Shown here one piece after another: positions 5,282-49,128 of a stretch of 56,089 nt of DNA. Each line of letters starts with the position of its first letter. Positions within the stretch are counted from its first letter, which is position 1. The notes below the pieces were generated by a model. The model worked only from the letters and a program-made list of their open reading frames with translations. It did no database searches and was not told the origin of the DNA. A program made the translations under genes and the position numbers. The stretch is from Eubacteriales bacterium (lineage in GTDB: Bacteria > Bacillota > Clostridia > Oscillospirales > JAAYXM01), in the NCBI GenBank assembly GCA_045614365.1, contig JAZLCV010000207.1, positions 1-56,089 of the forward strand, given 5' to 3'.

Positions 5282-5328
5282 GTTCCTCTATCCAGTGGGT
5301 GGAAGCAAAGCTTCCACCCTGCATTTGC

Positions 5329-14241: not shown

Positions 14242-14396
14242 AAGTTTCCTCCGATAATCACGAATGCTTGCACATTCAGGTTCACTTTTTGCGTATTTTT
14301 CTTGTTGTTATCCCCAAAAACCTCAAGAAAACTTTTCCCTTTGGGATAATTTGAGGAGGGTGAACGCCGTCCATCCTCCCCCAGTTGTTACTCTAA

Positions 14397-16466: not shown

Positions 16467-17120
16467 TCAGTTTTTAACAACGAAATAACCTACCCTTTCC
16501 TGCAAAATTTTGCTGTCATGAAACAGCAGAGGAATGTATTTGCTTTTTCTGTATTCTGCGATGAATTTCCCGCTCGCTTCTTCGTTATGGGATGAACCTG
16601 TGCAAATCCCATCCGTCAAGCATTTTTCATAATAACATTCATCACCGCACAGCACATAGTTATCTGCTAAAACGATACAAGAACCAAGGGAATGTCCCGC
16701 GATTTTCTTTATAATTAAATTCTCCGATAACGTAAATTCATCATCAATCAAATGAACATCAAAGCTTGCCGAAATATACTCTCTTGCCGCATCATATTCA
16801 TCCTTTTGAATGTGTATGACGGCATTTTTATAATATCCAATGGCTTCTATGTGGTCGTGGTGTGAATGAGTAATGATAACATCAGTAATATCATCCGGAG
16901 AAAGACCGTATTCCTTTAATACATCAACCGGCTTTTTGAAGATTGACATCTTAAAGCCTGCACCGTCGTCACAGCCTACATCAACAAGAATATTTTTGTT
17001 TTCGGTTTGTATCAGATAAATTGTGAACGTAATCGGCAAAAGAACATCTTTTCTGCCACCTTTAAAAATATAATTTTCTCCGAATACGGATTCTCCGTAC
17101 TTTAATGCTATAATCTTCAT
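16467..17120 (-). CDS. MBL-fold metallo-hydrolase (possible lactonase), 217 aa.
   Basis: HxHxDH motif (THSHHDHIEA). Its start overlaps the upstream gene's stop (ATGA at 17117-17120). Confidence 0.8.
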   Translation of the reverse strand: MKIIALKYGESVFGENYIFKGGRKDVLLPITFTIYLIQTENKNILVDVGCDDGAGFKMSIFKKPVDVLKEYGLSPDDITDVIITHSHHDHIEAIGYYKNAVIHIQKDEYDAAREYISASFDVHLIDDEFTLSENLIIKKIAGHSLGSCIVLADNYVLCGDECYYEKCLTDGICTGSSHNEEASGKFIAEYRKSKYIPLLFHDSKILQERVGYFVVKN

Positions 17121-34500: not shown

Positions 34501-37500
34501 GGATTCTTGTAAAGATTATCTTCATCGCGGAGACCATCCCAGTTTTCAATTGCTTCCATATACACTGAGAATGTGGAAACCCACAATTTCATATATCCCA
34601 TTGAGGATTCGTCTGCATACCCGTCGCGGTCAATCTTATTAAACAGCGCCGGACGCATTCCGCCGCCGGTGCATTTCGTCTGCGAGGTAACTCCCGGCTG
34701 CATAATGAACTCTATCATTTCGCTTGTATCCGGCTCACGATCAAGGATAACAGCCGCCAGTGCAAGGCTCTGCTGCTTCATACCAAAATTACCTGCTATC
34801 TGTCCGTTCTTTATTGCGGTATAGGTTTCAAAAAGCAGGTTCTCCTCTGCATTCTGACGGATAAGCTCGCCGTTTGTCTTCTTATTGTCAAGGTTCCATT
34901 GTTCTGCTTTTCCGGAAAGATAGCCTACTACCTCCGGATCATCATAGACATCAAAGAAGGCATCGTATGAGATGGTAAGAGTACTGTTCATCGTATTTTC
35001 CCAGATGCGCCCGACAACCTTACCGTTACCTCCTCCGTCGTGGGAGGACTGGAGCTTCGGGCAATCCGTGCCATAATCCATATCCGGATAAAGGTCTGCA
35101 ACTCTGTCAAGAATTATCGCACCAGCAATTCCGTACTTCTTATCACCCGTATACAGATACGCATCACGGAAGGCATTAAGCGAGCTTCGGACAAGTGCTT
35201 TTATACTTCCGGAGCCGTACCACACACCGTCGTGGTTGAATATCGCAACATAACGGTGGACATTTCTTATTTCCGTGTCTTCACTGCTTGTGTTGTAGCG
35301 TCCGGTGTCATAACCGAAGCCGTCATCAACACCCCAGAAATATCCGGTGGTCGGAACTCCGCTGTCTCCTCCGGTTTTGAAATCGCCCCAGCCCTGAGTT
35401 ATCTTGTCCTTATAGAACGGGTCAACCGCATCCGCGGCGTGAAGCTCGCTGTATGTTTCATTATAAAGATTACCCTTCGGGTCGCCGTAGCCATATGGGT
35501 TATCCTTTGCCCAGTCAAATACTACATACTCGCCTTTTTCGTTTCTTTCACCGCGACCGCAGAGAATTCCGTTTGCTTCTCTTGCAAGGGTATAGTCAAA
35601 CTCGCCGTGCTCGTCAAGTCCCCGCTTGTAGTATTCACCGAAGTCGTTACTCGGGAAAAGGCGCTTACAATCCGGACACTGTATCTTCCACGGACGTGCT
35701 ATCGCATCTATCTTCCATCCGTATTTGCCGTATTTGTAGTTTATGTCAACCCCGCAATAGAAACAGCGCCAGATAAGCGGGTCGTCCGTTTCAACAAGAT
35801 CGTAAGCGCGCGGAAGCGTATGCGCAGTTATCATATTATATATGAAATCATAATGCGGCAGATACTTATCCGCTTCTTCAATTGCCGCCTCTGCGGTATC
35901 CTCTGCCCAGTCATAAAGCTTTATGTTTTCACGTGCGGCGTTGACTTTCTTCTCCGTATAATACGTCTGGTCAGTCTTTCCGTCACGCACGGAAATTATT
36001 ATACTTTCGCTTCGTGAAACCCCATCAATTGTTACCGTTGCCTCGATTTCTGCAACGCCGGTATCAACCGGAGTTACGAAGCCTTTTTCATCAACGGTAA
36101 CTACGCTTTCATCCGACGATACATAGCTTAAGGCACCGTCCGGAACGGTAAGCGCCGCTCCGTTGTTGTCGTATGCACAGACAGAAAGCTTTATTCCTTC
36201 ACTGCTCTTCTTCAGAACCTGCGTTGCAGAGGTAAGCTCAAGGCTTGCAAAGCCTTCGCTGAGAACATTGAGCGGGATATAGTCTGAATAGTAAGTAGCT
36301 CCTCCAAAGGTTACCCTTGCCCTTACCGTTGTAGAGGCAGCCTTCACACCTGTTATCTTTTCTTCTGTGCTTACCGCAATTTCCGTATCAGCAACCTCAA
36401 ACTCAACAGAAATATCCTCTGCCTTGATTTCGCTTCCGTTTGTAAGATATGCTTTTACGACAGGAGAAACAGATCCTGAAACAAAGATGTCATACTGTGG
36501 TTCTGTAAATTCTATTCTGTCAAGCGTTTGCTCATTTACGGTAATCTCAATGCTTTTGCTTACCGCCGCGGCACCTTTTACATTTGCCGTTGCCGTTATT
36601 GTTGCCGTTCCCGGTGCCACGGCAACAAGCTTTTCACCGGATATTTTTACGATGCTGTCATCCGAGCTTTCAAGAGTAAGGTTATTTTCCGCATCCTTCA
36701 CGGTTTCCTTATCTCCGTGCTTTGCGCCGAAGACATAGCTTCGTCCGCCTGCCATAACCACACCCGGGGTAAGAGAGGTGCTTTCACCTGCCGCAAGAGA
36801 AGCTTTTTCTGCAGAAAGCTCTATTTTTTCAACACCGCCTTCTCCTTCAACATACGAAAGCTGGAGATAAGCGGGAATCATATATGAATAGCTTCCGGTG
36901 CTGTCTGTTTCCATTGCACGCATAGTGAAGGTATGCACGCCCTCTGTGAGATATATAGTGTTGAGAGATTTAAGCGCATTGTAGTTTCTGTTTGTAGACA
37001 TATCCGTCCAGAAGCAGAAATCACCTAAGAATTTACCGTCCATATACAGGTTTGTACGATTTGCACCGCGGTAGTACTGGGTTCCGAGGAAATCGAGCTC
37101 ATACCAGCCGTCATAATCCACCTGAATATCTATCGCGAGGTCTGCATTTCTTGTATTCCCGATTGTTTCCGTTTTAATCTGTACTCCCTGAGCATAACAA
37201 CGAAGATCCGGATTATTCGGGGTAATACACATATTCGCAGTTTTGTCCGTATTTATTTCCCAGCCGTATTGCTCTATCGTTACATTCGATGCAAAGCCGG
37301 ATCCCGGCTTACGGAAATCAATAAGCTTGCTCTTGGGAGATTTCGGCGTTACTTTAACTGAAAAAGGCTCACTTTTCTTGCTGTATTCTCCACACGTCAC
37401 CGTTGCAACAACATTTACGGACTCACACGCTGAAATGCCGGTGATAACTCCGGTATCGGGATCAAGCACAAGATACTGCTCATCCTCCGGATTTGCAAGT

Positions 37501-39812
37501 GCATAGGTCACCGTATATCTGTCGGCATTTTCAAGATCCGCCTCATTTCCGCTTTCATGCCATGCACGGACGGTAAGTGCCGTTGAGAAATCAACCTCAA
37601 CGTTGTCTGCACCGATAATCGCTGCATATTCAAACGGAGTATCATCCGCAACGGCAATATGCAGCGTTCCCTTTATCTGCACACCGTCTGCCTCAACCCA
37701 CACAGCAATATCTGCATTTCCCGGCCCACGGGCGGTAATGATACCGTCCTGCGAAACTGTTGCAACAGCGACATCCGAGCTTTCATACCAGTAAACAGAG
37801 CTTTCGCCGGTATACTCCTCTCCGTCATTGCAGAAAAGCTTATATTCTGTAATTTTTGCGGTTTCACCACGGGTAAGCTCCGTTTTATCTGCAGTCACCT
37901 CAGCGCGGTTAATAACAGGTTTTACATCACCAAACGATACAGAAACTGGTGCATCACGGGTTTCCCCGCCTATCGTTACGGTTGCAGTAATCTCTGCATC
38001 TCCGTTTGAAACAACAGTGATAACACCGTTGTTATCAACGGTAGCAATACCATCATCAGAAGATGTATATTTTATCTCACCGTCACCGAGTGCCGCGCCG
38101 ATAGTTATCGGATTCCCTGTGTTTGAATAAAGAGATAGCACGGTTTTGACTGTATCGCCGCACTGCAGGTCTTTTGTTTCCCCGGAAAGAGAAAGCTCTG
38201 CACGGTCAAATGCGACCTCATGTACCGAGAGGTGTGCCACCGATATGTCTGCTCCCTTGCATTCCGTTGCAATAAAATTAAGGCGCGGCTCAATACCGTA
38301 ATGAGTGTTATAGCCGTAATTTAAGTAAAGCGACGGGGTAGTAAACTTCGTCCACGGCTGATCTCCGCTCTTCTCTGCCCACAGCTGGGTTGCCATATTC
38401 TTCAACGACACAGCACTTGATGAGAGTTCGTTGTAATAATACATACGTATATCAGCAACCGGAAGGGTATTCGTGTTTTCGCTCTTTATATATCCGGTCA
38501 TTTCATAGAGCTTACCCGCACCTCCGACGAGGAGTGTTCTCTGGTCACTTGCTTTCGTTGAATAAGCTACATTTCCCTGAAGACGAATACGGTTCAGGTC
38601 CCCGGTCGGCTTCATAGAGAATTTCGGAATGTTGGTCGTCTCCCCTGTTATTTCCGAAACAATACCCTTCAAAAGCTCATAATCATATACATATGTACTT
38701 GTATTTTTCGACGATTTCCAGAAAGTGTCTTTCTTGCCAACCGAATTTGAACTATCGCCCAGATATACATCGCGTTCAAATTCACCGTGGTTATACGTTG
38801 TCACCAAAAGATTTTTGCCGATTATATTTACCTCGCATTTTGCGGAAATGCTGTCATTCCCCAAAGTTGCCGTTGCGGTAACCGTTGTTCTGCCGGGGGC
38901 AAGCGGCGTGAACACTCCGTTTTTCTGCGAAAGGATTTTTTCATTTTCAATCTTATAAGCAAGCTTTATTCCGGAACTCAGCTCTTTTCCGTCTCCGTCC
39001 GTAATGGTAAGCGGATATTGCTTCCCTGCAGTCAGAAGGTCTTCAGCAAAGGATGCCTCTATGCTTTCGGGAAGACGTACAACCTCATCCTCACTTACCT
39101 CCTGCCCCACCGGAACTATCCTTATTCCGGAAAGATACATTTCCTGGCGGTACCAGTAATAAGCAGAACTAGCTTCAGTCTCCATAACCGTTCCGTAAAC
39201 CGGATCATCCGGATTTTCATTTCTCCCTTTGTTGTTCAAGGCTAAGGAAGTTGGGTCTGCCACAAAGAGGATATAATAATCTCCCTTTTCAAGAGTTATT
39301 GTTTGTTTTGTTCCGTCTGCGCTTCCGTCAGCCGTAACCGGTGCATATTCACCCTTCGGTGCCTTGGAAAAGTTGAAATATCCAAGCGTTGTTTTCTCTC
39401 CTGTCAATTGATTAGGAGCTACGGCACCGGAAACTTTTTTATCATATTTTCCCATAGCAACCAACGGTGCAACGGATGTTTCCGTCGGATTATCGGTTTT
39501 AAAATAAAGATTATATTCCCCCGGCACATTTACGGTAACCTTTATTGCACCGTGTTGTGTATTCCCGTTATTGGAATCCACACCGCCACCGCCGCTGCCG
39601 TAACGTCGCACCTGGATACTTGTCCATGAAAGCACTGCGCTTGTGTATTCATATATACCTTTGCTGGAAACAGTGGAAGTATATGCGTAAAAATCAGACA
39701 GCGCAAGCTTCTGCTCCTCACCTGCCGCAAATGCCGGCATCACGGGAAGCAGGGATATTATCAGCGCGATGCTCAGAAGCAGTGATAAAATCCTGTTCAG
39801 TTTAGTTTTCAT
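31596..39812 (-). CDS. Giant (2738 aa) secreted, SLH-anchored multi-module protein with a heparinase II/III-type lyase core. Paralog of 5329-14241.
   Basis: - The start was set at MKTKLNRILSLLLSIALIISLLPVMPAFAAGE (signal peptide; the ORF extends upstream to 39893).
- CBM4/9-like segment.
- Big_2-like repeats (YTSSDDGIATVDNNGVITVVSNGDAEITA).
- Lyase core with HKHQDALNLGL..DLGY..ISHNTVLVN.
- He_PIG-like domain.
- G/T/P-rich linker.
- Three SLH repeats. Confidence 0.9.
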   Translation of the reverse strand: MKTKLNRILSLLLSIALIISLLPVMPAFAAGEEQKLALSDFYAYTSTVSSKGIYEYTSAVLSWTSIQVRRYGSGGGGVDSNNGNTQHGAIKVTVNVPGEYNLYFKTDNPTETSVAPLVAMGKYDKKVSGAVAPNQLTGEKTTLGYFNFSKAPKGEYAPVTADGSADGTKQTITLEKGDYYILFVADPTSLALNNKGRNENPDDPVYGTVMETEASSAYYWYRQEMYLSGIRIVPVGQEVSEDEVVRLPESIEASFAEDLLTAGKQYPLTITDGDGKELSSGIKLAYKIENEKILSQKNGVFTPLAPGRTTVTATATLGNDSISAKCEVNIIGKNLLVTTYNHGEFERDVYLGDSSNSVGKKDTFWKSSKNTSTYVYDYELLKGIVSEITGETTNIPKFSMKPTGDLNRIRLQGNVAYSTKASDQRTLLVGGAGKLYEMTGYIKSENTNTLPVADIRMYYYNELSSSAVSLKNMATQLWAEKSGDQPWTKFTTPSLYLNYGYNTHYGIEPRLNFIATECKGADISVAHLSVHEVAFDRAELSLSGETKDLQCGDTVKTVLSLYSNTGNPITIGAALGDGEIKYTSSDDGIATVDNNGVITVVSNGDAEITATVTIGGETRDAPVSVSFGDVKPVINRAEVTADKTELTRGETAKITEYKLFCNDGEEYTGESSVYWYESSDVAVATVSQDGIITARGPGNADIAVWVEADGVQIKGTLHIAVADDTPFEYAAIIGADNVEVDFSTALTVRAWHESGNEADLENADRYTVTYALANPEDEQYLVLDPDTGVITGISACESVNVVATVTCGEYSKKSEPFSVKVTPKSPKSKLIDFRKPGSGFASNVTIEQYGWEINTDKTANMCITPNNPDLRCYAQGVQIKTETIGNTRNADLAIDIQVDYDGWYELDFLGTQYYRGANRTNLYMDGKFLGDFCFWTDMSTNRNYNALKSLNTIYLTEGVHTFTMRAMETDSTGSYSYMIPAYLQLSYVEGEGGVEKIELSAEKASLAAGESTSLTPGVVMAGGRSYVFGAKHGDKETVKDAENNLTLESSDDSIVKISGEKLVAVAPGTATITATANVKGAAAVSKSIEITVNEQTLDRIEFTEPQYDIFVSGSVSPVVKAYLTNGSEIKAEDISVEFEVADTEIAVSTEEKITGVKAASTTVRARVTFGGATYYSDYIPLNVLSEGFASLELTSATQVLKKSSEGIKLSVCAYDNNGAALTVPDGALSYVSSDESVVTVDEKGFVTPVDTGVAEIEATVTIDGVSRSESIIISVRDGKTDQTYYTEKKVNAARENIKLYDWAEDTAEAAIEEADKYLPHYDFIYNMITAHTLPRAYDLVETDDPLIWRCFYCGVDINYKYGKYGWKIDAIARPWKIQCPDCKRLFPSNDFGEYYKRGLDEHGEFDYTLAREANGILCGRGERNEKGEYVVFDWAKDNPYGYGDPKGNLYNETYSELHAADAVDPFYKDKITQGWGDFKTGGDSGVPTTGYFWGVDDGFGYDTGRYNTSSEDTEIRNVHRYVAIFNHDGVWYGSGSIKALVRSSLNAFRDAYLYTGDKKYGIAGAIILDRVADLYPDMDYGTDCPKLQSSHDGGGNGKVVGRIWENTMNSTLTISYDAFFDVYDDPEVVGYLSGKAEQWNLDNKKTNGELIRQNAEENLLFETYTAIKNGQIAGNFGMKQQSLALAAVILDREPDTSEMIEFIMQPGVTSQTKCTGGGMRPALFNKIDRDGYADESSMGYMKLWVSTFSVYMEAIENWDGLRDEDNLYKNPKFIKMLYMGIDQYLAGVRSANIGDNSSTFAGVSFPNYTTSWLEGLRLTGDPVFAQLLWHTNGQSADGIHYGIFVEDPESPQEQIKQLVEQYDEYNFSESSITTGYGFAALRDGVMYDKVTTPTQTNTMRDWWMYFGGAATTHKHQDALNLGLDAFGLNMAPDLGYFSSSGGTGTTQGANWTESTISHNTVLVNDTPQVRIQQAGYPYHFEDAGSIKIMDVDAPQAYPGVTETYRRTVVSIDVDDTVSYALDFFRIVGGDEHVYSFHSQSEESVVTGVDMIAQPQGSYAGVDVPFGEETKYTATNGFNWLANVKRAVAPQTGEFSIDFKITDYRKVLKGKRNLHLKLTQLNDFNISEVATADGQPVQHDVNPEFTDYLLVRRSGKDLDTLFTSVIEPYEDESKIRSLTRVPVTYADGSELGRNETVTSIKVELTNGRVDYVVYAANNETAYRIDNLFDFEGFVGVYSVNATDNTDVVRTYLHDGKTLGAAIQNKDSAVTGEIVSFTDTLSLENFMEVTYNEEIAPEELVGRMIVIENDGSQNGAYMIKSAEKEGDHLRIGTGDVSYFRSLTADGNDYVMNIAKGDTYRIPLTYVTDNAPEIDVSGTFTTSAGSSIKIPLNVTSDREYTLIGTSLPRGMSLNAETGVLTWKPDASQVGENHVAVTVDNGVLSDTVHFIVTVYGNTTGGSTSDKTETSGADNTGTTGTPPASGGSGGGGGAAPTDKPDGTANPGETDTSGESGENTDNTGTENNSLRFTDLDDHAWAADEINALAADGIIKGTTASTFSPASNITRADFALLLVRAFKLESENTENFVDVSANDYFATELAIARNTGIINGIGDNKFAPRNTITRQDMMVIVYRALEAYLTLKGSEAERNVGAAMNDSPVDYQNRDVTEPGEMGPSNDGGGISPSLYPDFANVADYAKTAVSALVGAGLVNGKNGRIAPTDYTTRAEVAVLLKRILDYVK

Positions 39813-39956
39813 ACATTGGTCTCCTTTCAATTTTGCCCGCCGGCCGGGGGCTGTTTTTCTCTGTAGGGTTCGGCGCTTGCCGACGAACTGCATATATTCC
39901 CTCTTGTCTATTATAGCGGAGAGACTTAACTCTCCGCTATAGGTAAATTATTCCGC

Positions 39957-41909
39957 TTATTTCGTGTATGAGCCGTCGGTGTATTCTGTATATGTTCCGT
40001 CGGAATTTTTAATAACGGCATATCCCTTTGCACTTGTTGCATCTCCAAGCTCGACAGTAAACTGGGATTTCTTGCTTGTCATTGCAATTTTGGTCGTACC
40101 AAGAATTATTCCCTTTTCTACTGCATCGTCAAAGCCGATAAACTCTGCCATTACATTATTGTTGCTTCCGAAAACGTCGATTATGATCTTGCGCGCAACC
40201 GATGTAATCGGAGTGTGTTCTTTGTAAATAGCCTTTACTGTGCAATTTTCCCATGCGGAGAAGCGGTATTCTTCAGAATCTATGCTTACAATCTCTCCGT
40301 CCTTCTCCCACGCATAGAAGGTTCCTGTTCCGTTCGGCGTGCAGGTAACAATGTCCCCGTAAGCATATTTCGTCTTATCGGTTGTGCAGCCATCGGTTGT
40401 GATTGTGATGTCTGTCGACGGATCATCATACTTTGCAATAAGCATCATTGTTTCATTGACCGTTATCGGTACATTGCCGGCGTATGTTGTTCCGTCTTCT
40501 GCCACCCAGCAGCTTGCAGCGCCGTAGCCTGCCATCGAAGGAAGCTCGGGTGTTGTTCCGGTTGCCGTTTCTACCTTTCCGTAAAGCAAGCCGTTTGCAT
40601 TGTAAAACTCTGCCTTAGGAGATGTTGCGCCGTTCTTTTCATAAACTGCGATAAGGTAGTTTACAACATTTCCGGTCGGTGTGTAGATAAAGCTTTCTTC
40701 ACGAGAAACAACTCTTTTTGCTCCGCCATCAAGACCTTTTGCCCAGTAAAGGAATGTGTTATCTTTGTTCGCTGTTGATGTGCTCATCCGATATGTGCCG
40801 TCACTAAGCTGTGTTGCAGTTGCGGTTACGCCATCCGCAACCTCTGCGCCGTCAACATACGGAAGAGCCGTTACTTTGTCTGTGTATACAACTGCCTCCA
40901 CTGTTTCTGTATCATCCGGTGAAAATGCGTCAGTGAGACCCGGATCTTCTGCGGGAGCAGGAGCATTTACTGTAACAGTCGTTGTGTATGTTTTATTTCC
41001 GACTGTTGCAACGACAGTTGCAGGACCTGGATTTTTAGCTGTTATTACACCGGATTCGGGATCAATATCGATAAAATCCTTACCGCCTTCTTCAACGGAA
41101 TATGTTACAAAACTGCCCAAAACATCTGTGCCTTCGACCTTAATGGATGCTGTTGTTGTCACGCCTATCTCAATTGAAGGCTCTGCAACCGAAAAAACAG
41201 CATTGTCGGGACCGGCGACCTTTGTAAGCTTTAAGTTATATATATAAGCTTCGGTTATTCCAGCACTAATAAACGATTGCGTTCTTGTATAGATTCCAAA
41301 AATAATCGGAGTCGTGCCGTCTGTGTAAATCACTTTGCTATTATATGCAGAAAAATCCGTAGAAGCATTTTTACTGTTTCCGATCTGATGTTCTGTAGTT
41401 ATATAGTCTTCGATTGTTTTTTTATCGCTGAGCTTTGGTCCGGCAAATAAGATAGGTCCGGCAGTTCCTTTTGAAGAAAGCACATAATAACCGGCTTCAC
41501 TCGGTGCTTCAAGTTCTACACCGATTTTCGTTTCAGCAGGCATCGAGTCCTTATAAGCTTTATTTCTCAATCTAAGACCGTCATTCGTAACAGATACTAA
41601 GTTAGCGTCTCCTTGCTCAAGCCAGGACCAAACAGTAGCATCTACATCAAAATACTTCCAGCCATGATGGTATGTGCCGGTGTCGTCCGTACAACCGTAA
41701 GCCTTAATTCGCGCAAAACCATACTGGTGGTGTCCCTCAAGGGTTTCGTCCATAACCTCCGAACTCCAAATATGAACCCCGTTCTTCCCCGTGGCGGCTC
41801 GTCCAAAAACATATTCTTTTTCCACCGTTGCGGAAGCGCTTACAGTAATACCGGCAAACATTGATAAGCATATCGTCATTGCCAAAATAACCGAAATAAT
41901 CTTTTTCAT
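39957..41909 (-). CDS. Secreted accessory protein (650 aa). Paralog of 14397-16286.
   Basis: GGGAGGA RBS and signal peptide MKKIISVILAMTICLSMFAGITVSASA. It has a Big_2-like segment (YSVEEGGKDFIDIDPESGVITAKNPGPATVVA) and B-repeat-like segments (FLYWAKG, FYAWEKDG). No anchor. Confidence 0.8.
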   Translation of the reverse strand: MKKIISVILAMTICLSMFAGITVSASATVEKEYVFGRAATGKNGVHIWSSEVMDETLEGHHQYGFARIKAYGCTDDTGTYHHGWKYFDVDATVWSWLEQGDANLVSVTNDGLRLRNKAYKDSMPAETKIGVELEAPSEAGYYVLSSKGTAGPILFAGPKLSDKKTIEDYITTEHQIGNSKNASTDFSAYNSKVIYTDGTTPIIFGIYTRTQSFISAGITEAYIYNLKLTKVAGPDNAVFSVAEPSIEIGVTTTASIKVEGTDVLGSFVTYSVEEGGKDFIDIDPESGVITAKNPGPATVVATVGNKTYTTTVTVNAPAPAEDPGLTDAFSPDDTETVEAVVYTDKVTALPYVDGAEVADGVTATATQLSDGTYRMSTSTANKDNTFLYWAKGLDGGAKRVVSREESFIYTPTGNVVNYLIAVYEKNGATSPKAEFYNANGLLYGKVETATGTTPELPSMAGYGAASCWVAEDGTTYAGNVPITVNETMMLIAKYDDPSTDITITTDGCTTDKTKYAYGDIVTCTPNGTGTFYAWEKDGEIVSIDSEEYRFSAWENCTVKAIYKEHTPITSVARKIIIDVFGSNNNVMAEFIGFDDAVEKGIILGTTKIAMTSKKSQFTVELGDATSAKGYAVIKNSDGTYTEYTDGSYTK

Positions 41910-41947
41910 TTTGTTTTTCCTCCCTTATTTTGCTTGCTAAAGCTTTT

Positions 41948-41989
41948 TTGTATAACGTATGCATACGTTATACAAGGGGATATCCCCTT
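41948..41989. promoter_or_regulatory. Two abutting perfect palindromes upstream of cassette 2 (28 nt and 16 nt).
   Basis: ttgtataacgtatgcatacgttatacaa (41948-41975) overlaps aaggggatatcccctt (41974-41989). They lie ~40-80 nt upstream of the 41909 start codon and downstream of the 42041 stop. Confidence 0.4.
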
Positions 41990-42040
41990 CGTTTTTCATA
42001 TATATTTTTTATATTAACCGACTTTCGCCGGATTGTTTTT

Positions 42041-42847
42041 TTACTTTAACTTACTTGGTTGCCTGCCCGAAAAAATCTCCTGCGCATTGTTGTGAAAATC
42101 GCGGAGGGTAATCGGTCGGCTTGCATATTCTTTCGGTCCTGCAGACAGCTCATATATCCACGCGCCGTTATAACCTATTTCGCAAATCTTTTTATAAAGC
42201 GCAACCCAATCAATCTTTCCGTATCCCGCAAGCCAATGGCGTTCAGCAACGAAATCATAATCGTTAATATGCATTGTTATAAGCTTATCGCGAACCTTTT
42301 CTGCAAAATCATCGTGACTGTCAAAAAACAGATGATTTGTGTCAAAGCAAATGCGCAGCTTGTCGTTTGCGGAAACAAGCTCTAAAAGCTCATCTGCGCT
42401 GTTGCCGAGACATATCGGAATCATATTTTCAACCGCAATCCGCGCGCCCCGTTCATATGCAAAATCCGCAAGACCGAAAAGCGCTTCCATTGCATATTTT
42501 TTTGATTCCTCACGGCTTTTTCCTTCAATCGGACCGCCCGGGTGAATTACGAATTTATCCACACCGATATCCGCTGCCCGCTCTATCAGCATGCAGTGAA
42601 AATCATAAGCCCATTTTCTTTCCTCTGCGCTTGCCTGAACGATTGCCCACTGATCCCGAAACGGAAGATGGCATGACCATAAACAGATACCGTAACGGTC
42701 GGCAAGCTCACGCACCTTACAAAAATCAAGCTTTTCAGGTTCTCTCATGCAGGAAATCTCTGTTGCCGTCATACCTCCTCTTTGCATTTCGGCAAAATCC
42801 GCTTCCGTAAGCTGATTATCGTAATACCTTATTCCTATTTTTCGCAT
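42041..42847 (-). CDS. Sugar-phosphate isomerase/epimerase, xylose-isomerase-like TIM barrel (268 aa).
   Basis: AAGGAG RBS. Motifs FVIHPGG, IAVENM, CFDTNH and HINDYD are typical of the AP-endonuclease-2/xylose-isomerase-like fold. Confidence 0.8.
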   Translation of the reverse strand: MRKIGIRYYDNQLTEADFAEMQRGGMTATEISCMREPEKLDFCKVRELADRYGICLWSCHLPFRDQWAIVQASAEERKWAYDFHCMLIERAADIGVDKFVIHPGGPIEGKSREESKKYAMEALFGLADFAYERGARIAVENMIPICLGNSADELLELVSANDKLRICFDTNHLFFDSHDDFAEKVRDKLITMHINDYDFVAERHWLAGYGKIDWVALYKKICEIGYNGAWIYELSAGPKEYASRPITLRDFHNNAQEIFSGRQPSKLK

Positions 42848-42984
42848 TTAAAAAATCTCCTTTGCGCAAAGCCGCACCAATCAACATGATAAATGCGTAT
42901 AAAAAACAATTTGAGCTTCTTTGCAAAATAATTATATATCAACTTCGCCTTACATAAAATGCACGAAACTTTTTTATTTGCACC

Positions 42985-42997
42985 TTTTGGTACAAAA
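42985..42997 (-). promoter_or_regulatory. Candidate operator shared with the GRE promoter region.
   Basis: ttttggtacaaaa, preceded by ttgca. Its reverse complement recurs at 43989-44001. Confidence 0.35.
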
Positions 42998-43058
42998 CAT
43001 ATATTATAAATCTCAAATGACAATATCTGCCAAATCCCAAAACACGCACCGTTATAAG

Positions 43059-43093
43059 AAAAAACACAGTCCGTACCGAAACTGTGTTTTTTT
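43059..43093. terminator. Bidirectional intrinsic terminator downstream of the AraC gene.
   Basis: aaaaaa-cacagt-ccgtaccgaa-actgtg-ttttttt. Confidence 0.6.
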
Positions 43094-43117
43094 ATAACTA
43101 ATATTACCAAGCTGTAT

Positions 43118-43921
43118 TTACTTTGATGATTTATACCGCTGTATGAAAACCGACGGGGATATTCCGATATATTCCTTAAACTGACGGCTGAAATAATATA
43201 CGTTATCGTATCTGCACATCTGTGCCACCTCGGATATCGTATACCGTTCGGAGCTTAAAAGGTCGCAGGCGTAATTTATTTTCATTTGAATAATATACTT
43301 CATCGGCGTCACACCGAATTTTTTGATGAAAAGCTTTTTTAAGTATGATTCGCTTATTCTGCACCTTTCCGACAGAAACGGCACGGATATTTTTTCATTA
43401 AGAAAATTTTTCTCAATATATATGATTGCAGGTTTTATTAAATCATACTGGCTTTGCCCTATGTAGTTTGTTTTCTGCATCTCGGCAAAAATTTTGTAAA
43501 GCAGGGATATGCATTCAAAATAATATCCGTCATCCTTTGAAACCCACGCGGCAAAAAGCTTTTTGAACAAATTCCCGATACGCTCTGCATTGTTGCATTT
43601 TACTACAAACGCTTCGTCTGCAACGGGCAAATCAGTATCGAAAAATATATCTATACATTCAGCTCCTGCATCGTCTTTCTTATTTTCAACAATATACTGA
43701 CGGTTTTCCCCTTTCGGGAGAAAACGGATGGTGTTCTCCTCTACATTCATAACCTTGCCGTTAAAATAAACTGTGTTCCTGCCGGCTAAATTGTATATAA
43801 GCTCATTGTGTGTAAGCTGACTCTTAAAAACCACTCTTTCCTGAGGATATTCATTTTTGCCTACAAAAACAGCTCTTTCAATCGCCGTTATTCGGAAATC
43901 GCCGTTAAAATAATCATTCAT
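43118..43921 (-). CDS. AraC-family transcriptional regulator (267 aa).
   Basis: The start was set at MNDYFNGDFRI (the ORF extends upstream to 44026). C-terminal double HTH (YTISEVAQMCRYDNVYYFSRQFKEYIGISP). It is divergent from the GRE operon. Confidence 0.9.
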   Translation of the reverse strand: MNDYFNGDFRITAIERAVFVGKNEYPQERVVFKSQLTHNELIYNLAGRNTVYFNGKVMNVEENTIRFLPKGENRQYIVENKKDDAGAECIDIFFDTDLPVADEAFVVKCNNAERIGNLFKKLFAAWVSKDDGYYFECISLLYKIFAEMQKTNYIGQSQYDLIKPAIIYIEKNFLNEKISVPFLSERCRISESYLKKLFIKKFGVTPMKYIIQMKINYACDLLSSERYTISEVAQMCRYDNVYYFSRQFKEYIGISPSVFIQRYKSSK

Positions 43922-43988
43922 ATACAACACCGCCTCAGCTATTATAATACATAAAAATCTTCGCTGTGTCAACACACCAAAACTACTT

Positions 43989-44001
43989 TTTTGTACCAAA
44001 A
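43989..44001 (+). promoter_or_regulatory. Candidate operator shared with the TIM-barrel gene promoter region.
   Basis: ttttgtaccaaaa followed by ta-tgcaa, 78 nt upstream of the GRE start. It has the same orientation relative to its downstream gene as the 42985 copy. Confidence 0.35.
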
Positions 44002-44078
44002 TATGCAAGCATTGTCTTTTGTGCATTTACTTCTTCTGTTATTTAAATGTATAATCGCAACGAAAGGTGGAAGACACA

Positions 44079-46199
44079 ATGACAGAAAGAATAAAAGAGC
44101 TTACAAAATTAACGCTTGAGGGAAAAATGTATGCAAATCCCGTCAAGACCGAATTTAACAAGGAAGATATGCTGCTGCCGAAGCAACAGAAAGAAGCAAA
44201 GCAGCTTTGTGAATATATTTTAAATCAGGAACCGGTACTTACCCCATATTCAATGATGACCGGATTCTTTAACTGCAGCAATTCCGTTGTCGGCGATGTT
44301 TTCCGCCGTATAGGGCATAAAACATTCGCGGAGCTTTTCACCAGTCTTTACTTAAAGCCAATCGACAATCTCTCAACCTTTGAATGGCAGCATGCAACGG
44401 CTGATTATAAAAAAGTCCTCGAAAAAGGAATTTCGGGAATAATCGGTGAGATAGATGATTCTCTTAAGGTACATACGGATCCGAATGAGACAGAATTCTT
44501 AAATGCACTGAAATCCGTCGCCCACGCGCTCATCAGCTGGGCACACAAATGTGCAGACCGCGCGCTCGCGCTTTCGAAAACGGTTGATAATTGCGAATAC
44601 AAAGAAAATCTTGAAAAGCTTTCAGAAACGTTATACAGAGTTCCCGAAAACGCACCTTCTTCCTTTTACGAAGCCGTGCTTACAATATATCTCTGCTTTT
44701 CCGCAGATCCGGACAGCATTGGAACACCCGACCGTTATCTTACGCCATTTTATGAAAGCGACATAAAAAACGGAGTGATAACAAGAGACGGTGCTAAAGA
44801 AATACTTCAGGAGCTGTTTTTAATGCTTCAGGCAGCAACCCACGTGACATCAGCGTGGTTTACAAGAGGCGGCGAATCCCACTTCTGCATCGGCGGATAC
44901 CTCCCGAATGGCGAGGATGGGTTCAATGACCTTTCACGCCTTATTCTCGAAGGCTTAATGGAGCTTCCCACATGGATACCGCAGGTATCTCTTCGCTGGA
45001 CAAAAAAGATGCCGAAGGAAGACTTCCGATTCGTACTTAACTGCGAACGGAATGACCCCAACAAGAGAATTGCTTTCCAAAACGACGAAAAGCGCATAAA
45101 ATGCTATACCGAAATATGCGGCTTCCCGTTTGAAAAAGCGGTAGGATATACTACCGTAGGATGTAACGAACCGGTATTTCAGGGCGCAGTTACCGGCAGT
45201 ACCTCAGCGGTAAATTTTGCCCGTTCAACAGAAACCGTTTTCTACAAAAAGAGCGATGAAATCCTGAATGCAAAAACGTTTGATGATTTCTATAATGTTT
45301 TTATTACTGAATTGCTTTCGGATATTGACGTTGCCTGCGACTATGATGATAAATACAACCTCAAGCGCGCGGAGGATATCAACTATTTATCCTCTCTTTT
45401 CTTTGACGGCTGTATCGAAAAGGCAAAAAGTGCAACGCAAGGCCCCGGCACTTTCGCTATCGCATCCATTCTTTATATCGGAATAACAAATGTAATAGAT
45501 TCACTTATCATAACAAAGCAGTTCGTATTCGATGAAAAGCTTGTTACGATGCAAGAGCTTGTTTCCGCACTCCGCGCTGACTGGCAAGGATATGAAGAGC
45601 TTCACGCCACTATTCTGAAAAAGGGTGACTTTTTCGGCAATGACACCGAACGCTCAAATTATATTGCACAAAAGCTTTTCCAAAACCTTTACGAGCATCT
45701 GAAAGATAAAACAAATCTTTTCGGTTACCACTGGCTTATCGGCGATCTTACAGGATATCGCGATCATCCGAAATTGTTTGGTGAAAAAACAAAGGCTACC
45801 CCCGACGGAAGATATGCCGGCGATGCTCTGAAATTTGGCTTCGGTCAGAGCGAGGGCAAAGATCGGAACGGGCTCTCCGCGCTTTTAAATTCAATTGCAA
45901 AAGCCGATCCCAATGCAATCGGCTGCGGTTCAACTGTCACCAACATAATGATAGATGAGCAGTTAATCAAAAATGACGAGTATTTTGAGAAAACCGTTGA
46001 TATGCTTGAAACGTACTTCAAAAACGGCGGTGTACATTTTCAGCTTACTTATGTATCAAAAGAGGACCTTCTCAACGCAAAAGTTACACCGGATAATTAC
46101 AAAAACCTGCGCGTTCGCGTTTCTGGCTTTGCCGATTACTTCGTAAAGCTGAGCGATACTCTGCAAGACGATATCATCGAAAGGACAATGCAAAAATGA
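44079..46199 (+). CDS. Glycyl-radical enzyme, PFL-fold, short form (706 aa). Substrate unknown.
   Basis: AAAGGTGGA RBS before the ATG at 44079. C-terminal glycyl-radical motif RVRVSGFADYF (Gly codon 46125-46127). Cys loop TVGCNEP (Cys codon 45162-45164) with Glu at Cys+2. Confidence 0.9.
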   Translation: MTERIKELTKLTLEGKMYANPVKTEFNKEDMLLPKQQKEAKQLCEYILNQEPVLTPYSMMTGFFNCSNSVVGDVFRRIGHKTFAELFTSLYLKPIDNLSTFEWQHATADYKKVLEKGISGIIGEIDDSLKVHTDPNETEFLNALKSVAHALISWAHKCADRALALSKTVDNCEYKENLEKLSETLYRVPENAPSSFYEAVLTIYLCFSADPDSIGTPDRYLTPFYESDIKNGVITRDGAKEILQELFLMLQAATHVTSAWFTRGGESHFCIGGYLPNGEDGFNDLSRLILEGLMELPTWIPQVSLRWTKKMPKEDFRFVLNCERNDPNKRIAFQNDEKRIKCYTEICGFPFEKAVGYTTVGCNEPVFQGAVTGSTSAVNFARSTETVFYKKSDEILNAKTFDDFYNVFITELLSDIDVACDYDDKYNLKRAEDINYLSSLFFDGCIEKAKSATQGPGTFAIASILYIGITNVIDSLIITKQFVFDEKLVTMQELVSALRADWQGYEELHATILKKGDFFGNDTERSNYIAQKLFQNLYEHLKDKTNLFGYHWLIGDLTGYRDHPKLFGEKTKATPDGRYAGDALKFGFGQSEGKDRNGLSALLNSIAKADPNAIGCGSTVTNIMIDEQLIKNDEYFEKTVDMLETYFKNGGVHFQLTYVSKEDLLNAKVTPDNYKNLRVRVSGFADYFVKLSDTLQDDIIERTMQK

Positions 46200-46939
46200 A
46201 ACTGAGAAATGATAAAATAATTGTTTTCGGTGGCGGAGGAGGCATTGGTTCTGCCATTGCAAAACGCTTTTGCGATGCCGGAGCAAAAGTTTTGATTGCA
46301 GGCAGAAGTGAAGCTTCGCTTAAAAAGGTTGCCGATGAAATCGACAGCAGGAATTTATTTTACAAGACATTCGACATCTCAAAGGTTGATGAACATATTT
46401 CTTTTTTCGACGAAGCTGAAGCTCTTCTTGGCGAGATTAGCGGATTTGTAAACTCTGCCGCTCTCGGAAGCAAGGGAGGATATGAACCGTGGGATATAAC
46501 GAGTGCTGAATGGGATGCCATGTCAGACATAAACTTCAAAGCAGCATTCTTTTTAATGCGCAATGAGGTTGACTATATGCTTAAAAAAGGCATACGGGGA
46601 AATATCCTGAATCTTTCTTCCAATGCCGCATGTATGGATATCACAGGTAGCTACGGTGCATCAAAGGAAGCAATCGTCAAATGGACAAGAGCGTTCGGGA
46701 AAAGATTCGGTCACAAAGGAATTATCATAAACGGAATTGCTCCGGGTGCGACGTTCACTCCCATGATTTCCGATTATGCACACGATATCAACCAAAAGTA
46801 TGAACGCCACGCGATTGAGCGCTTTATCCGCCCCGACGAGATCGCAGAGCTTGCTTTTTATCTCATGAGCGACTATGGCGAAATAATCTGCGGTCATACG
46901 GTTGTTGCTGATGGCGGCGATAATGTGGCGACATTATAA
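46196..46939 (+). CDS. Short-chain dehydrogenase/reductase (247 aa).
   Basis: The ATG overlaps the GRE stop (ATGA). GGGGGIGSAIA cofactor motif and catalytic YGASK. Confidence 0.85.
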   Translation: MKLRNDKIIVFGGGGGIGSAIAKRFCDAGAKVLIAGRSEASLKKVADEIDSRNLFYKTFDISKVDEHISFFDEAEALLGEISGFVNSAALGSKGGYEPWDITSAEWDAMSDINFKAAFFLMRNEVDYMLKKGIRGNILNLSSNAACMDITGSYGASKEAIVKWTRAFGKRFGHKGIIINGIAPGATFTPMISDYAHDINQKYERHAIERFIRPDEIAELAFYLMSDYGEIICGHTVVADGGDNVATL

Positions 46940-47006
46940 AAAGCCTAATTTGTATCTGTATAACTCACGAATTATAAAATAAATTTTCCTTTTAGGAGCT
47001 ACATTT

Positions 47007-48146
47007 ATGTTTGAAAATTTAAAAAAGTTTTGCGACTCATTTTTAGAAATTGATGTTCCCGGGTTTGATTTGGCGGTTTATAAAGACGGTGAGTGTATCC
47101 TACGGCATATGAACGGCTACAGCGACCTTGAAAACAAAATCAAAATGAACGGAAAAGAAAAATACAATATTTATTCCTGCTCAAAGGTTATAACCTGTAC
47201 TGCAGCCTTGCAGTTATGGGAAAAAGGATTGTTTTCACTTGAGGACAAGCTTTCCGACTATATGCCCGAGTTTAAGGAAATGACGATCAAAACAGAGGGT
47301 GGCATCAAAAAAGCCGAGAACCCGATTTTAATAAAACACTTGTTCGAAATGACAGCAGGCTTTTCCTACAACTGTTCTTCACCGCAATTAAAGAAGGCTT
47401 TTGACGAAACGGCCGGTAGGTGCCCTACCCGTGAAGTAATGAAATATTTGGCAAAAGAGCCGTTGCTTTTTGAACCGGGCGACAGGTGGTTGTATAGCTT
47501 ATGCCACGATGTTTTGGCAGCTTTTGTCGAAGTGGTTTCGGGTGAGAAATTTGAAGCCTATGTCAAAAAGAATATTTTTGATGTTTTGGGAATGAATAAT
47601 TCTACGTTTATGCTACCCGAATCGGAAATTGAAACAATTGCACCGCAATACAAATTTAAAGACGGTAAAGCGATCAATATCGGAAGACCTATATCTAACT
47701 ATAAAATGGGCACTGAATACGCGTCAGGCGGCGCAGGTGGAATTTCTACCGTAGACGATTATATGAAATTTTTGGAAGCGCTTCGTACCCATAAACTGAT
47801 AAAGTCTGAAACGCTGAAATTGATGATGACCGACCGTTTAAGCGCTCATCAAAAACGCACCTATGAGGCAAAAAACACCCACGGCTACGGCTTGGGCGTG
47901 CGTTGTCCAATGGGTGACAAACGGTATATTGATTTCGGTTGGGGCGGTGCTGCAGGCGCATTTTGGGCTATTGATGTTGAAAATGCCATTTCCCTTTATT
48001 TCGGTATGCATTTATTGTCTTCTCCCTCCCAGGGGTTGCGTTCCATGCTTTATCTCTTCGTAAGAACAGAGCTGTTTGATAACAGCGAGTTTGATGATTT
48101 GTATAAAGATTTAAAAGAATTACACGATTATAATTTAACCTATTAA
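47007..48146 (+). CDS. Beta-lactamase-fold serine hydrolase (family VIII esterase / class C-like), 379 aa.
   Basis: SxxK motif (YSCSKVIT), a YSL (Yxx) second motif, and a WGGAAG third motif. No signal peptide. Confidence 0.8.
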   Translation: MFENLKKFCDSFLEIDVPGFDLAVYKDGECILRHMNGYSDLENKIKMNGKEKYNIYSCSKVITCTAALQLWEKGLFSLEDKLSDYMPEFKEMTIKTEGGIKKAENPILIKHLFEMTAGFSYNCSSPQLKKAFDETAGRCPTREVMKYLAKEPLLFEPGDRWLYSLCHDVLAAFVEVVSGEKFEAYVKKNIFDVLGMNNSTFMLPESEIETIAPQYKFKDGKAINIGRPISNYKMGTEYASGGAGGISTVDDYMKFLEALRTHKLIKSETLKLMMTDRLSAHQKRTYEAKNTHGYGLGVRCPMGDKRYIDFGWGGAAGAFWAIDVENAISLYFGMHLLSSPSQGLRSMLYLFVRTELFDNSEFDDLYKDLKELHDYNLTY

Positions 48147-48158
48147 CGGAGAGAAGCT

Positions 48159-48983
48159 ATGTCTGTTTCCACAATATTTGATATACAAAGAAATTCATTT
48201 GTTGACGGGCCCGGCATCCGCACGACTGTGTTTTTCAAAGGTTGTAACTTAAGATGCAGATGGTGTCACAATCCCGAAAGCCGGAATTTTGAAAAAGAAA
48301 TATTGTTTTATCAAAACAAATGTACCGGTTGCGGAAGATGCAAGGAGATAACTGCCGACAACATAGACTTTATTTGCTTTAGCGATGCAAAGGAAATCTG
48401 TGGAAAAGAATATACCGTTGACGAAGTTTTCGGCGAAATAATCAAAGATAAAACTTTTTATGAAACATCAGGCGGCGGTGTAACATTTTCCGGTGGAGAA
48501 TGTATGCTGCAGATTGATTTTCTCACCGAAATACTCAAAAAATGCAAGGATACCGGCATCCATACAGCTATTGATACTGCAGGGCATATATCTTGGGAAA
48601 GCTTTGAAAAAATTCTTCCGTACACCGACTTGTTTTTATATGACATCAAAACTATGGATGAAAAAAAACACAAGGAATATACAGGCGTCACAAACAGGCT
48701 TATACTTGAAAACATCAAAAATCTTCTCAAAACCGGAGCGGATATATGGGTAAGAGTCCCGGTAATTCCCGGTTTCAATGATAACGAAGAGGAAATGAGA
48801 AGCATCCGTTCTTTCTTTGAAAAGAACGGATATCCGAAAAAAATCGAGCTTCTTCCCTACCACGCGATGGGCGAACACAAATATACGGCACTGGGCGAAG
48901 AAGTTCATCACTTCGCCGTTCCAAACAAAGAAAAGATCGATGAACTGAATGCTGTTTTCTATGCCCATCGGCATAATTCATAA
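48159..48983 (+). CDS. Glycyl-radical-enzyme activating enzyme (radical SAM), 274 aa.
   Basis: CNLRCRWCHNPE (CX3CX2C) and a GGE motif (FSGGECM). It has one auxiliary Cys cluster (CTGCGRCKE...C), not the two usually seen in eliminase-type activases. Confidence 0.9.
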   Translation: MSVSTIFDIQRNSFVDGPGIRTTVFFKGCNLRCRWCHNPESRNFEKEILFYQNKCTGCGRCKEITADNIDFICFSDAKEICGKEYTVDEVFGEIIKDKTFYETSGGGVTFSGGECMLQIDFLTEILKKCKDTGIHTAIDTAGHISWESFEKILPYTDLFLYDIKTMDEKKHKEYTGVTNRLILENIKNLLKTGADIWVRVPVIPGFNDNEEEMRSIRSFFEKNGYPKKIELLPYHAMGEHKYTALGEEVHHFAVPNKEKIDELNAVFYAHRHNS

Positions 48984-49069
48984 AATACATCCGCACAGCT
49001 CCGGACAAAGGTGAGAACCCTTGCCCGGAGAAAATTGTATTTTGCAACTTTCAAGCAAATTAAAACATC

Positions 49070-49098
49070 TTGCAAAATATGGGGATTTTTGGTACAAT
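49070..49098 (+). promoter_or_regulatory. Putative sigma-A promoter of prmA.
   Basis: TTGCAA, a 17-nt spacer, then TACAAT with a TG extension (tggTACAAT). Confidence 0.45.
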
Positions 49099-49128
49099 AT
49101 ATAGTAGCAAATATTTGGAGGTTTTTTT

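Follow-up and report, generated by a model that had tools for sequence, protein, structure and literature searches.

The 56,089-nucleotide stretch of DNA analysed here (contig JAZLCV010000207.1, positions 1 to 56,089; hereafter the window) comes from an uncultured gut bacterium of the Clostridia, and it carries a real operon of four genes that is built around a compact glycyl radical enzyme (GRE) of 706 amino acids (aa). On sequence grounds, this enzyme is placed in a distinct clade of 678-713-aa GREs which share a GCNE cysteine loop, and the locus probably has new substrate chemistry, together with an unusual modular organisation and a one-cluster activase, although as a system it is of no new type. 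With a probability of roughly 60%, the locus is read as a functional, substrate-inducible catabolic operon, whose GRE would perform a radical elimination or isomerisation of the CxE type (a single catalytic Cys with Glu two residues further on) on a hydroxylated compound outside the known GRE substrates.

The open reading frame (ORF) map and the domain scans resolve four co-oriented genes on the forward strand, i.e., the GRE (44079-46199), a classical short-chain dehydrogenase/reductase (SDR; 46196-46939, 247 aa), a serine hydrolase of the beta-lactamase fold, presumably cytoplasmic (47007-48146, 379 aa), and the radical SAM GRE-activating enzyme, or activase (48159-48983, 274 aa). The start of the SDR gene overlaps the GRE stop codon in an ATGA, the arrangement that the first-pass annotation had described as translational coupling. 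The next gene after the activase encodes PrmA, which places the end of the operon at the activase. Chance matches do not explain the E-values of the domains.

A regulator of the AraC family (Pfam HTH_18 and HTH_AraC) is encoded divergently, on the reverse strand, at 43118-43921. The ORF as listed extends to 44026 and has 302 aa, which is likely 35 codons too long, and given that its homologues beside related GREs have mostly 256-273 aa, the true start is probably Met36 at 43921, where MNDYF begins. The divergent control region between the two transcription units (43922-44078, 157 bp) contains promoter-like hexamers on both strands (forward, 44026-44055; reverse, 43972-43944), which are pattern matches to the consensus only, together with the ribosome-binding site of the GRE gene, AAGGTGG, at 44064-44070, 8 nt 5' of the ATG at 44079. 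No riboswitch or other known RNA family reached its gathering score when the whole window was scanned with Rfam.

The shortness of the GRE is genuine. An upstream in-frame stop limits the ORF, and the only extension available is one of four codons, to a GTG at 44067 that lies inside the ribosome-binding site, which disposes of the mis-set start, with a homologous upstream extension, that had been named as one way in which the claim might fail. The best 120 database matches, each of them a 90% cluster, are 73-100% identical to the window GRE and have 705-718 aa, which means that at least 120 distinct clusters of this type share at least 73% identity with it. In 80 species-representative genomes, the family is 49-99% identical, and mostly 703-707 aa long after the alignment of the start calls. 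Mis-setting of the start and truncation of the gene were thus both rejected, based on the upstream stop, the ribosome-binding site, the lengths of the homologues, and a compact model of high confidence.

This model, produced by AlphaFold2 from an alignment of 33 sequences, has a mean pLDDT of 93.7 and a pTM of 0.92, with no disordered segment, and it predicts the ten-stranded beta/alpha barrel of the superfamily, in line with the Pfam matches to the PFL-like (PF02901, E 6e-79) and Gly_radical (PF01228, E 2e-18) domains. In Foldseek, the model matched the solved GREs with a probability of 1.00 and TM scores of 0.77-0.85 when normalised to the query, while most of the solved eliminases and isomerases gave 0.80-0.85 on this scale and approximately 0.67-0.77 when normalised to the larger targets.

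The missing parts were located by alignment to glycerol dehydratase (GD), HpyG, IseG, and HpzG. Compared with these four enzymes, the N-terminal helical region is shorter by some 59 residues, seven residues are deleted from the loop that corresponds to His281/Ser282 of GD, three are deleted at a site that includes the position of GD Tyr339, and a further 10-12 residues are lost from a surface loop. The N-terminal helices form a conserved dimer interface in GREs (PMC13450708). The window enzyme is shorter than every characterised or solved GRE that it matched, which have chains of 759-1150 aa, and in this respect it is unusual, as had been claimed, but small size is not exclusive to its clade, given that many uncharacterised GREs of 700-760 aa, at approximately 30% identity, came up when 1.84 billion representative proteins were searched exhaustively with HMMER.

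The catalytic elements of a GRE are in place. The Gly loop (R678-V-R-V-S-G683-F684, 46110-46130) contains the predicted site of the glycyl radical, Gly683 (codon 46125-46127), and the Cys loop (G361-C362-N363-E364-P365, 45159-45173) presents a putative thiyl-radical Cys362 and the Glu364 of the CxE motif (45162-45170), in an arrangement that differs from the Cys-Cys pair of PFL; both motifs had been recognised in the first reading of the sequence. Gly683, Cys362, Asn363, and Glu364 are invariant in all 74 full-length family members, as are His105 (44391-44393), Asp212 and Ser213 (a P-D-S loop, 44712-44717), His268, and Gly555, while His563 is found in 72 of the 74. A single Cys with Glu at the +2 position defines the eliminase/isomerase class, and in the characterised CxE enzymes, this Glu binds the substrate hydroxyl and deprotonates it after hydrogen abstraction by the thiyl radical (PMC13450708).

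One related cluster (P0006, 19 member sequences, 77% identical) has an Arg in place of the radical Gly (RVSRFS), which may reflect a sequencing error, an inactive allele, or an oddity. An aminoacyl radical enzyme with a radical residue other than Gly was considered and discarded, given the conservation of Gly683 and the restriction of the Arg to this one cluster.

The position of the enzyme within the superfamily was evaluated from several angles. Among the solved structures, the best sequence score was obtained for HpyG (210 bits), followed by IseG (205), GD (201), HpzG (195), CutC (192), HypD (191), HplG (187), PflD (187), and YbiW (176), with much lower values for HPAD (123), BSS (107), and PFL (64), which indicates that the sequence lies nearer to the eliminases and isomerases than to the formate lyases, decarboxylases, or X-succinate synthases. 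Identity to GD, HpyG, IseG, and HpzG is 26.9-29.3%, and it does not exceed approximately 30% for any characterised GRE. The NCBIfam equivalog models were all missed by a factor of 4-5, for example, those for HypD (NF043068, 245 bits vs. a cut-off of 1100), CutC (TIGR04394, 213 vs. 1050), and HpsG (257 vs. 1000). The PFL equivalog (TIGR01255) gave 83 bits against a cut-off of 994, with no Cys-Cys pair, and the PFL2/glycerol dehydratase subfamily model (TIGR01774) gave 275 against 678.

A neighbour-joining tree, which was built without bootstraps and used only to assess the exclusivity of the core clade, grouped 16 sequences exclusively, all of them with the GCNE loop and 678-713 aa. A uniform distance of about 0.79 separates this clade from the four characterised enzymes, and the tight clustering with a characterised family of similar length which would have undermined the earlier claim was not seen. 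Graded representatives with a homologous N-terminus extend down to 33% identity (P0121-P0125, P0133, and P0138; 678-713 aa). Among the full-length representatives, the enzymes with the GCVE loop, i.e., that of GD, HpyG, and HpzG, have a median of 800 aa, and those with GCNE, a median of 710 aa. Judged by these comparisons, the window GRE is about equally distant from the glycerol, propanediol, and hydroxyproline dehydratases, CutC, the sulfonate C-S lyases, and the isomerases. Membership in any characterised family was rejected, given the missed cut-offs and the absence of the respective substrate-binding residues, and no GRE with these partners or this length is described in the literature searched in full text or in a 2026 review (PMC13450708), which upholds the first impression that the locus matches no described GRE system.

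The residues around the active site also separate the enzyme from its solved relatives. For this mapping, the enzyme was aligned with 1r8w, 8id1, 5ymr, and 8iof, whose sequences were reconstructed in part from HMMER output. The substrate-binding set of GD, which we take from the literature on 1R9D to consist of His164, His281/Ser282, Tyr339, Asp447, and Tyr640, is represented by His164 only (H105 in the window enzyme), with Tyr339 deleted and Asp447 and Tyr640 replaced by Ser374 and Leu557, respectively. His105 also aligns with His194 of IseG, and the W-x-H motif is common to both enzymes (W103/H105 and W192/H194), but the residues that anchor the sulfonate in IseG are replaced (Arg676 by Gly555 and Gln191 by Glu102; Arg187 lies beyond the alignment).

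Those conserved polar residues that map close to the active site are acidic or His, and none of the mapped positions holds an invariant Arg or Lys specific to the family. Given this, the charge of the pocket suggests a neutral or cationic, polyol-like substrate, rather than a sulfonate, a phosphate, or a carboxylate. The main subclade (60-77% identity) has the same residues at the positions aligned to the active-site elements, whatever accessory set follows the GRE gene, while the subclade of 49-56% identity has a different pocket signature.

The activase scores 332 bits against TIGR02494 (cut-off, 174) and has the C29x3C33x2C36 cluster motif, followed by an insert with only five Cys, at 55, 58, 61, 73, and 81 (48321-48401). 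Most GRE activases carry eight auxiliary Cys, in a domain whose function is called unknown (PMC13450708). When the window protein was compared with 48 related activases, 33 of the 49 had 8-10 Cys, with an insert of the form CxxCxxCxxxCP ... CxxCxxCxxxCP, and 16, including that of the window, had a shorter insert with five Cys (six in one case). Cys55, 58, and 61 are the first three Cys of motif 1, Cys65 is replaced by Thr, and motif 2 has lost its CxxCxxC, but the position of Cys73 is a Cys in all 49 aligned proteins, and in our reading of the insert sequences, it would be the last Cys of motif 2.

In the clostridial ferredoxins with two [4Fe-4S] clusters, the first three Cys of motif 1 and the last of motif 2 ligate one and the same cluster. 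By this rule, the Cys retained in the window activase (55, 58, 61, and 73) would be exactly one ligand set, and one auxiliary cluster is expected, rather than two or none. The two CX2CX2CX3C motifs of the eight-Cys, two-cluster ferredoxin-like domain are not both present, in contrast with the standard activases CutD, HypD-AE, and HPAD-AE, which share the CX3CX2C cluster, the TIGR02494 match, and the position of the gene beside that of the GRE, while PFL-AE differs in the opposite direction, as it has no ferredoxin-like domain at all. The first-pass annotation had been right about the reduced Cys complement, which it considered intermediate between PFL-AE and the two-cluster activases, but as most activases of the family have 8-9 Cys, the one-cluster form is better seen, from the alignment, as the derived state of a subclade. 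Activases of the five-Cys type are also paired with two unrelated GREs in tandem arrays (L004 and L043).

The second gene encodes a classical SDR, with GGGGGIG, NLSS, and Y153xxxK157 motifs and matches to PF00106 (adh_short) and PF13561 (adh_short_C2). It reached no NCBIfam cut-off, and its best match there, below the cut-off, was the glucose 1-dehydrogenase subfamily. An Arg after strand 2 of an SDR is associated with a preference for NADP(H), and the presence of Arg37 at this point suggests NADP(H) as the cofactor.

The hydrolase encoded between the SDR and the activase matches PF00144 (E 2.5e-55) and has the S57-C-S-K60 motif, which bears out both the beta-lactamase fold and the SCSK motif assigned to it at the outset. 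Its best solved relatives are the esterases 7pp3, Est-Y29, 4ivi, and EstB 1ci8, and by sequence, it appears closest to the family VIII carboxylesterases. No class C beta-lactamase or penicillin-binding protein model of NCBIfam reached its cut-off, and the translation has no obvious N-terminal signal sequence.

The neighbourhoods of the related loci define what is constant in this system. ORFs were called in all the loci, clustered by BLASTP, and named by Pfam and NCBIfam, and 51 of the loci had at least 4 kb of sequence downstream of the GRE gene. An AraC gene was found within two genes upstream of the GRE in 62 of 68 evaluable loci, and an activase in 41 of the 51. The remaining partners are less regular, with an SDR in 24 loci, a phosphotriesterase-family (PTE) protein in 17, an M20 protein of the Sapep/PepV dipeptidase type in 12, a beta-lactamase-fold hydrolase also in 12, a PGA_cap protein in three, and no accessory gene in 14. 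Only the AraC regulator, the GRE, and the activase recur as a core, and the accessory set varies. The combination of the SDR and the beta-lactamase-fold hydrolase as sole accessory genes occurs at three loci, two of which are the window and its sister genome (L003).

The operon at L011 (9893-20803) represents the other extreme, with six types of hydrolase in all, in the order GRE, M20, PGA_cap, a YitT membrane protein, an S9/BD-FAE alpha/beta hydrolase, PTE, SDR, a GDSL hydrolase, a beta-lactamase-fold hydrolase, and the activase. In the subclade of 49-56% identity, a different SDR (36-41% identical) is encoded upstream of the GRE. On the other hand, the SDR (L085, 9302-10057) beside a GRE of only 33% identity (P0133) is 63-67% identical to those of the family loci, which would mean either that the SDR partner is far more conserved than the GRE or that the modules have been reshuffled. 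Given the variable accessory set and the constant active-site residues of the main subclade, the accessory enzymes look exchangeable around a single GRE reaction, and the hydrolase is an add-on, not a defining step. The pathway of hydrolysis, oxidoreduction, and radical elimination put forward in the first-pass annotation is only partly supported, as its fixed sequence of steps was read from a single locus, with one accessory combination among many.

Starting from the gene content, motifs, fold, clade membership, and conserved partners that were observed, the reaction type, the order of the steps, and the class of the substrate can be inferred as follows. The AraC-type regulator would switch the operon on, and the activase would install the radical on Gly683, which would then generate a thiyl radical on Cys362. 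By analogy with the characterised CxE enzymes, Cys362 would abstract a hydrogen from the carbinol carbon of a hydroxylated small molecule, Glu364 would deprotonate the hydroxyl, and the resulting ketyl radical would expel or cleave an adjacent C-O or C-N bond. His105 and Asp212 are candidates for acid/base assistance in this step. The carbonyl product could arise by 1,2-elimination or by a ring-opening isomerisation, and the SDR may interconvert it with an alcohol or a lactol. The beta-lactamase-fold enzyme might serve as an exchangeable module of the esterase or lactonase type, whose task would be either the release of the substrate from a conjugate or the opening of a lactone that the SDR produces.

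Several points weigh against this scheme. The reaction type is derived from a motif and from homology at 21-30% identity, and both the mapping of Asp212, for which the correspondence with GD is uncertain because of the deletion, and the statement on the charge of the pocket are uncertain, as the substrate-binding loops are shortened in this enzyme. As 14 of the 51 loci have no accessory gene, the SDR and the hydrolase may not act on the substrate or product of the GRE at all. The accessory genes also diverge in their hints, with M20 dipeptidases at some loci and sugar-type ABC transporters beside the distant members of the clade. In addition, the window GRE differs from the main subclade at the pocket-proximal positions V366, Q368, T375, and R561, and its specificity may thus differ from that of its relatives.

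A broader version of the proposal, to which somewhat less than an even chance is given, is that the compact GCNE clade acts on a new class of GRE substrate, for example, an unphosphorylated sugar-like or amino-polyol compound that is abundant in the herbivore and human hindguts, as a plug-and-play cassette. Such a cassette would combine the fixed AraC-GRE-activase core with interchangeable "feeder" enzymes (SDR, PTE, M20, PGA_cap, and esterases), and would spread by recombination and on mobile elements. The divergent hints of the transporters and glycoside hydrolase neighbours, which point to a carbohydrate-derived polyol, and of the M20 and PGA_cap proteins, which point to an amino compound, are both kept as rival accounts of the substrate.

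The first of these, a sugar-type substrate, is a possibility to be held with some doubt. The GRE would dehydrate or ring-open a non-phosphorylated sugar alcohol, a deoxy or anhydro sugar, or a cyclitol, as the unphosphorylated counterpart of the YbiW/PflD reaction ("anhydroglycolysis"), and the SDR and the hydrolase would form a sugar dehydrogenase/lactonase or de-esterification module. YbiW/PflD and the HplG isomerases share the CxE loop and similar fold scores with the window GRE, but their identity in structural alignments is 21-24%, and the operon has none of the phosphotransferase system, kinase, or aldolase genes. The substrate of the window GRE would need to be unphosphorylated.

The possible link with carbohydrates comes from transporters beside distant members of the clade. 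The locus of P0133 encodes SBP_bac_8, two BPD_transp_1 permeases, PGA_cap, AraC, activase, and SDR proteins, and that of P0135 (a GRE of 35% identity), a YesMN-like sensor kinase, an AraC-type response regulator, an esterase, and a transporter composed of Peripla_BP_1, double ABC_tran, and BPD_transp_2 proteins. The same reading gains from the AraC regulators, which are typical of sugar catabolism, from the adjacency of the SDR to a lactonase-like PTE gene at many loci, from the affinity of the SDR with glucose 1-dehydrogenases (below the cut-off), from the GDSL, BD-FAE, and family VIII esterases of the L011 operon, and from the lack of an invariant Arg or Lys, which fits an uncharged substrate. 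Neighbours at various loci include GH16, GH130, GH5, GFO/IDH/MocA, MR_MLE, BNR, and DHDPS-family proteins and xylose-isomerase-like TIM barrels. However, the transporters stand only beside GREs of 33-35% identity, with none in the window operon, the genes outside the cassette vary by locus and may be unrelated to it, no kinase, aldolase, or isomerase is consistently linked, and the recurrent Sapep/PepV dipeptidase and PGA_cap proteins would be unexpected in a sugar pathway.

It is these last proteins that speak for an amino compound, a rather less probable substrate than the sugar, i.e., a hydroxylated amino acid or amino alcohol comparable with those of HypD, HpyG, HpzG, HplG, and CutC. In this case, the variable hydrolases would free the substrate from a dipeptide, an amide, an ester, or a lactone, and the SDR would reduce an imine or a carbonyl. 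The M20 partner exceeds the cut-off of the Sapep dipeptidase subfamily (251 vs. 208 bits), a peptide C-terminal epimerase is a distant relative of the PGA_cap proteins, D-aminopeptidases exist among the beta-lactamase-fold enzymes, and the invariantly acidic position 102 (Glu/Asp), together with Asp212, could bind an ammonium group. In general chemistry, the gamma-hydroxy amino acids lactonise readily, which would provide a role for a PTE-type lactonase.

HpyG (8id1), HpzG (8iof), and HypD (6vxc) likewise share the PFL-like barrel, the Gly loop, the single-Cys CxE motif, a dedicated activase, and an origin in gut Clostridia with the window enzyme, and HpzG and HypD are among the high scores. 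The score of HpyG, the best sequence match among the solved structures, is not, however, meaningfully above those of IseG and GD (210, 205, and 201 bits), and HpyG has a Glu at the position of the invariant His105 of the clade. The enzymes of the hydroxyproline type are 27-29% identical, with GCVE instead of GCNE, and the window GRE is about 80 residues shorter. The HypD equivalog falls far short of its cut-off, and the cassette is not accompanied by a pyrroline-5-carboxylate reductase, an amino-acid transporter, or an aminotransferase. The sulfonate lyases IseG/IslA and HpsG, which show comparable similarity, are set apart by the replaced anchoring residues and by the lack of a sulfite reductase context at the window locus.

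Much less probable than either of these is a glycerol, 1,2-propanediol, or ethylene glycol dehydratase of reduced size. The SDR would then act as an aldehyde reductase to regenerate NAD(P)+, and the esterases would release the diol from its esters. Such a reductase would parallel that of the established pathway of 1,3-propanediol formation, and in the structural comparison, GD (1r8w) ranks first (TM 0.85, normalised to the query), ahead of propanediol dehydratase (5i2g), with the CxE loop, the TPDGR motif, and the equivalent of GD His164 in common. Against this, the Foldseek scores are practically equal for most of the solved eliminases, the identity to GD is 28.6%, with an N-terminus 59 aa shorter, Tyr339, Asp447, and Tyr640 are all lost, the loop of His281/Ser282 is shorter, TIGR01774 remains well below its cut-off, and no microcompartment genes, CoA-acylating aldehyde dehydrogenase, or iron-dependent alcohol dehydrogenase are consistently linked, with neither microcompartment nor aldehyde dehydrogenase genes at the window locus.

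The least probable account, a different GRE chemistry (decarboxylation, formate-lyase, or fumarate addition) or a decaying, inactive locus, may appeal to the Glu two residues past the Cys in the HPAD-type decarboxylases and to the Arg of cluster P0006 at the radical position, but it is opposed by the much lower similarity to the decarboxylases, BSS, and PFL than to the eliminases, by the lack of a Cys-Cys motif or a small-subunit gene, by the catalytic residues invariant in 74 homologues, and by four frames intact in a second genome.

The comparison with this second genome, the sister genome L003 (approximately 9480-14560), also reveals the recent history of the operon. The four reading frames are intact and nearly identical there, which supports the view that the operon is in use, and when identity is measured in bins of 300 nt, the tract at 44012-49111, which includes the operon, is 97-100% identical, whereas identity falls to 77-83% in the AraC gene and to 85-92% in the PrmA and housekeeping genes downstream. 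The codon differences comprise 19 synonymous and 10 non-synonymous changes in the GRE, and two and none, respectively, in the activase. This mosaic of identity indicates that the operon, without its AraC gene, has apparently been exchanged recently, by recombination or horizontal replacement.

At another locus (L001), the cassette is composed of AraC, GRE, M20, a PGA_cap fragment, PTE, SDR, and the activase, and it lies between serine recombinase, ParB, relaxase, NikA-like, and RepA_N genes (1-9000) and, at its other end, TnpV (16600-17700). A mobile element may thus carry it as cargo. Several metagenome-assembled genomes of gut Clostridia (L004, L028, L039, L043, L058, and L076) contain arrays in which two or three different AraC-GRE-activase cassettes stand in tandem. 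The GREs of these arrays have 680-771 aa and are 23-30% identical to each other, and some of the cassettes include GDSL, PTE, or EamA genes.

The wider significance of such a cassette follows from the difficult anaerobic steps that GREs perform in the gut, such as those that turn choline into trimethylamine and taurine into H2S, or the use of hydroxyproline and anhydro sugars. Whole clades of GREs are still without an assigned function, as stressed in the 2026 review (PMC13450708). Unannotated clades of this type are numerous, and the present one has clear limits, is abundant in gut metagenomes, and can be approached by experiment; the related genes of the 80 species-level genomes come from the guts of ruminants, rabbits, birds, and humans (Hadza), with none from cultured organisms. 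The shortened active-site loops, the invariant Asn of the Cys loop, and a set of partners unlike that of the described GRE systems argue for a new substrate, and if the substrate is new, a new flux of hindgut metabolites may follow. As the one-cluster activase has close relatives with two clusters, nature itself provides a comparison by which the role of the ferredoxin-like domain could be tested, and the 706-aa GRE offers a compact scaffold for structural and engineering work.

A xylose-isomerase-like TIM barrel (Pfam scan; 42041-42847, reverse strand) lies beyond the AraC gene, and both had been reported alongside the operon. Both are indeed present, but the TIM barrel lies in a segment (38135-43111) that has no counterpart in the sister genome, where synteny resumes only at 43112, and homologous barrels are found in only two other related loci. 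Its best NCBIfam matches (CbiR, IolO, and fructoselysine 3-epimerase) are all below the cut-off. It was thus rejected as a member of the system, and is a strain-variable neighbour.

Further upstream, a giant S-layer-type ORF of 2765 aa (31596-39893, reverse strand) encodes three SLH domains, Big_2 domains, He_PIG, a hyaluronate-lyase N-terminal beta domain, and a heparinase II/III C-terminal domain, and is probably a cell-wall-anchored polysaccharide lyase. A link between the operon and this heparinase II/III-like protein, by way of lyase-derived products, is unsupported, given that the cassette occurs in unrelated contexts and that the exchanged tract ends at 44012. Finally, the ORF list includes a second giant ORF, of 2970 aa, at 5329-14241 on the same strand.

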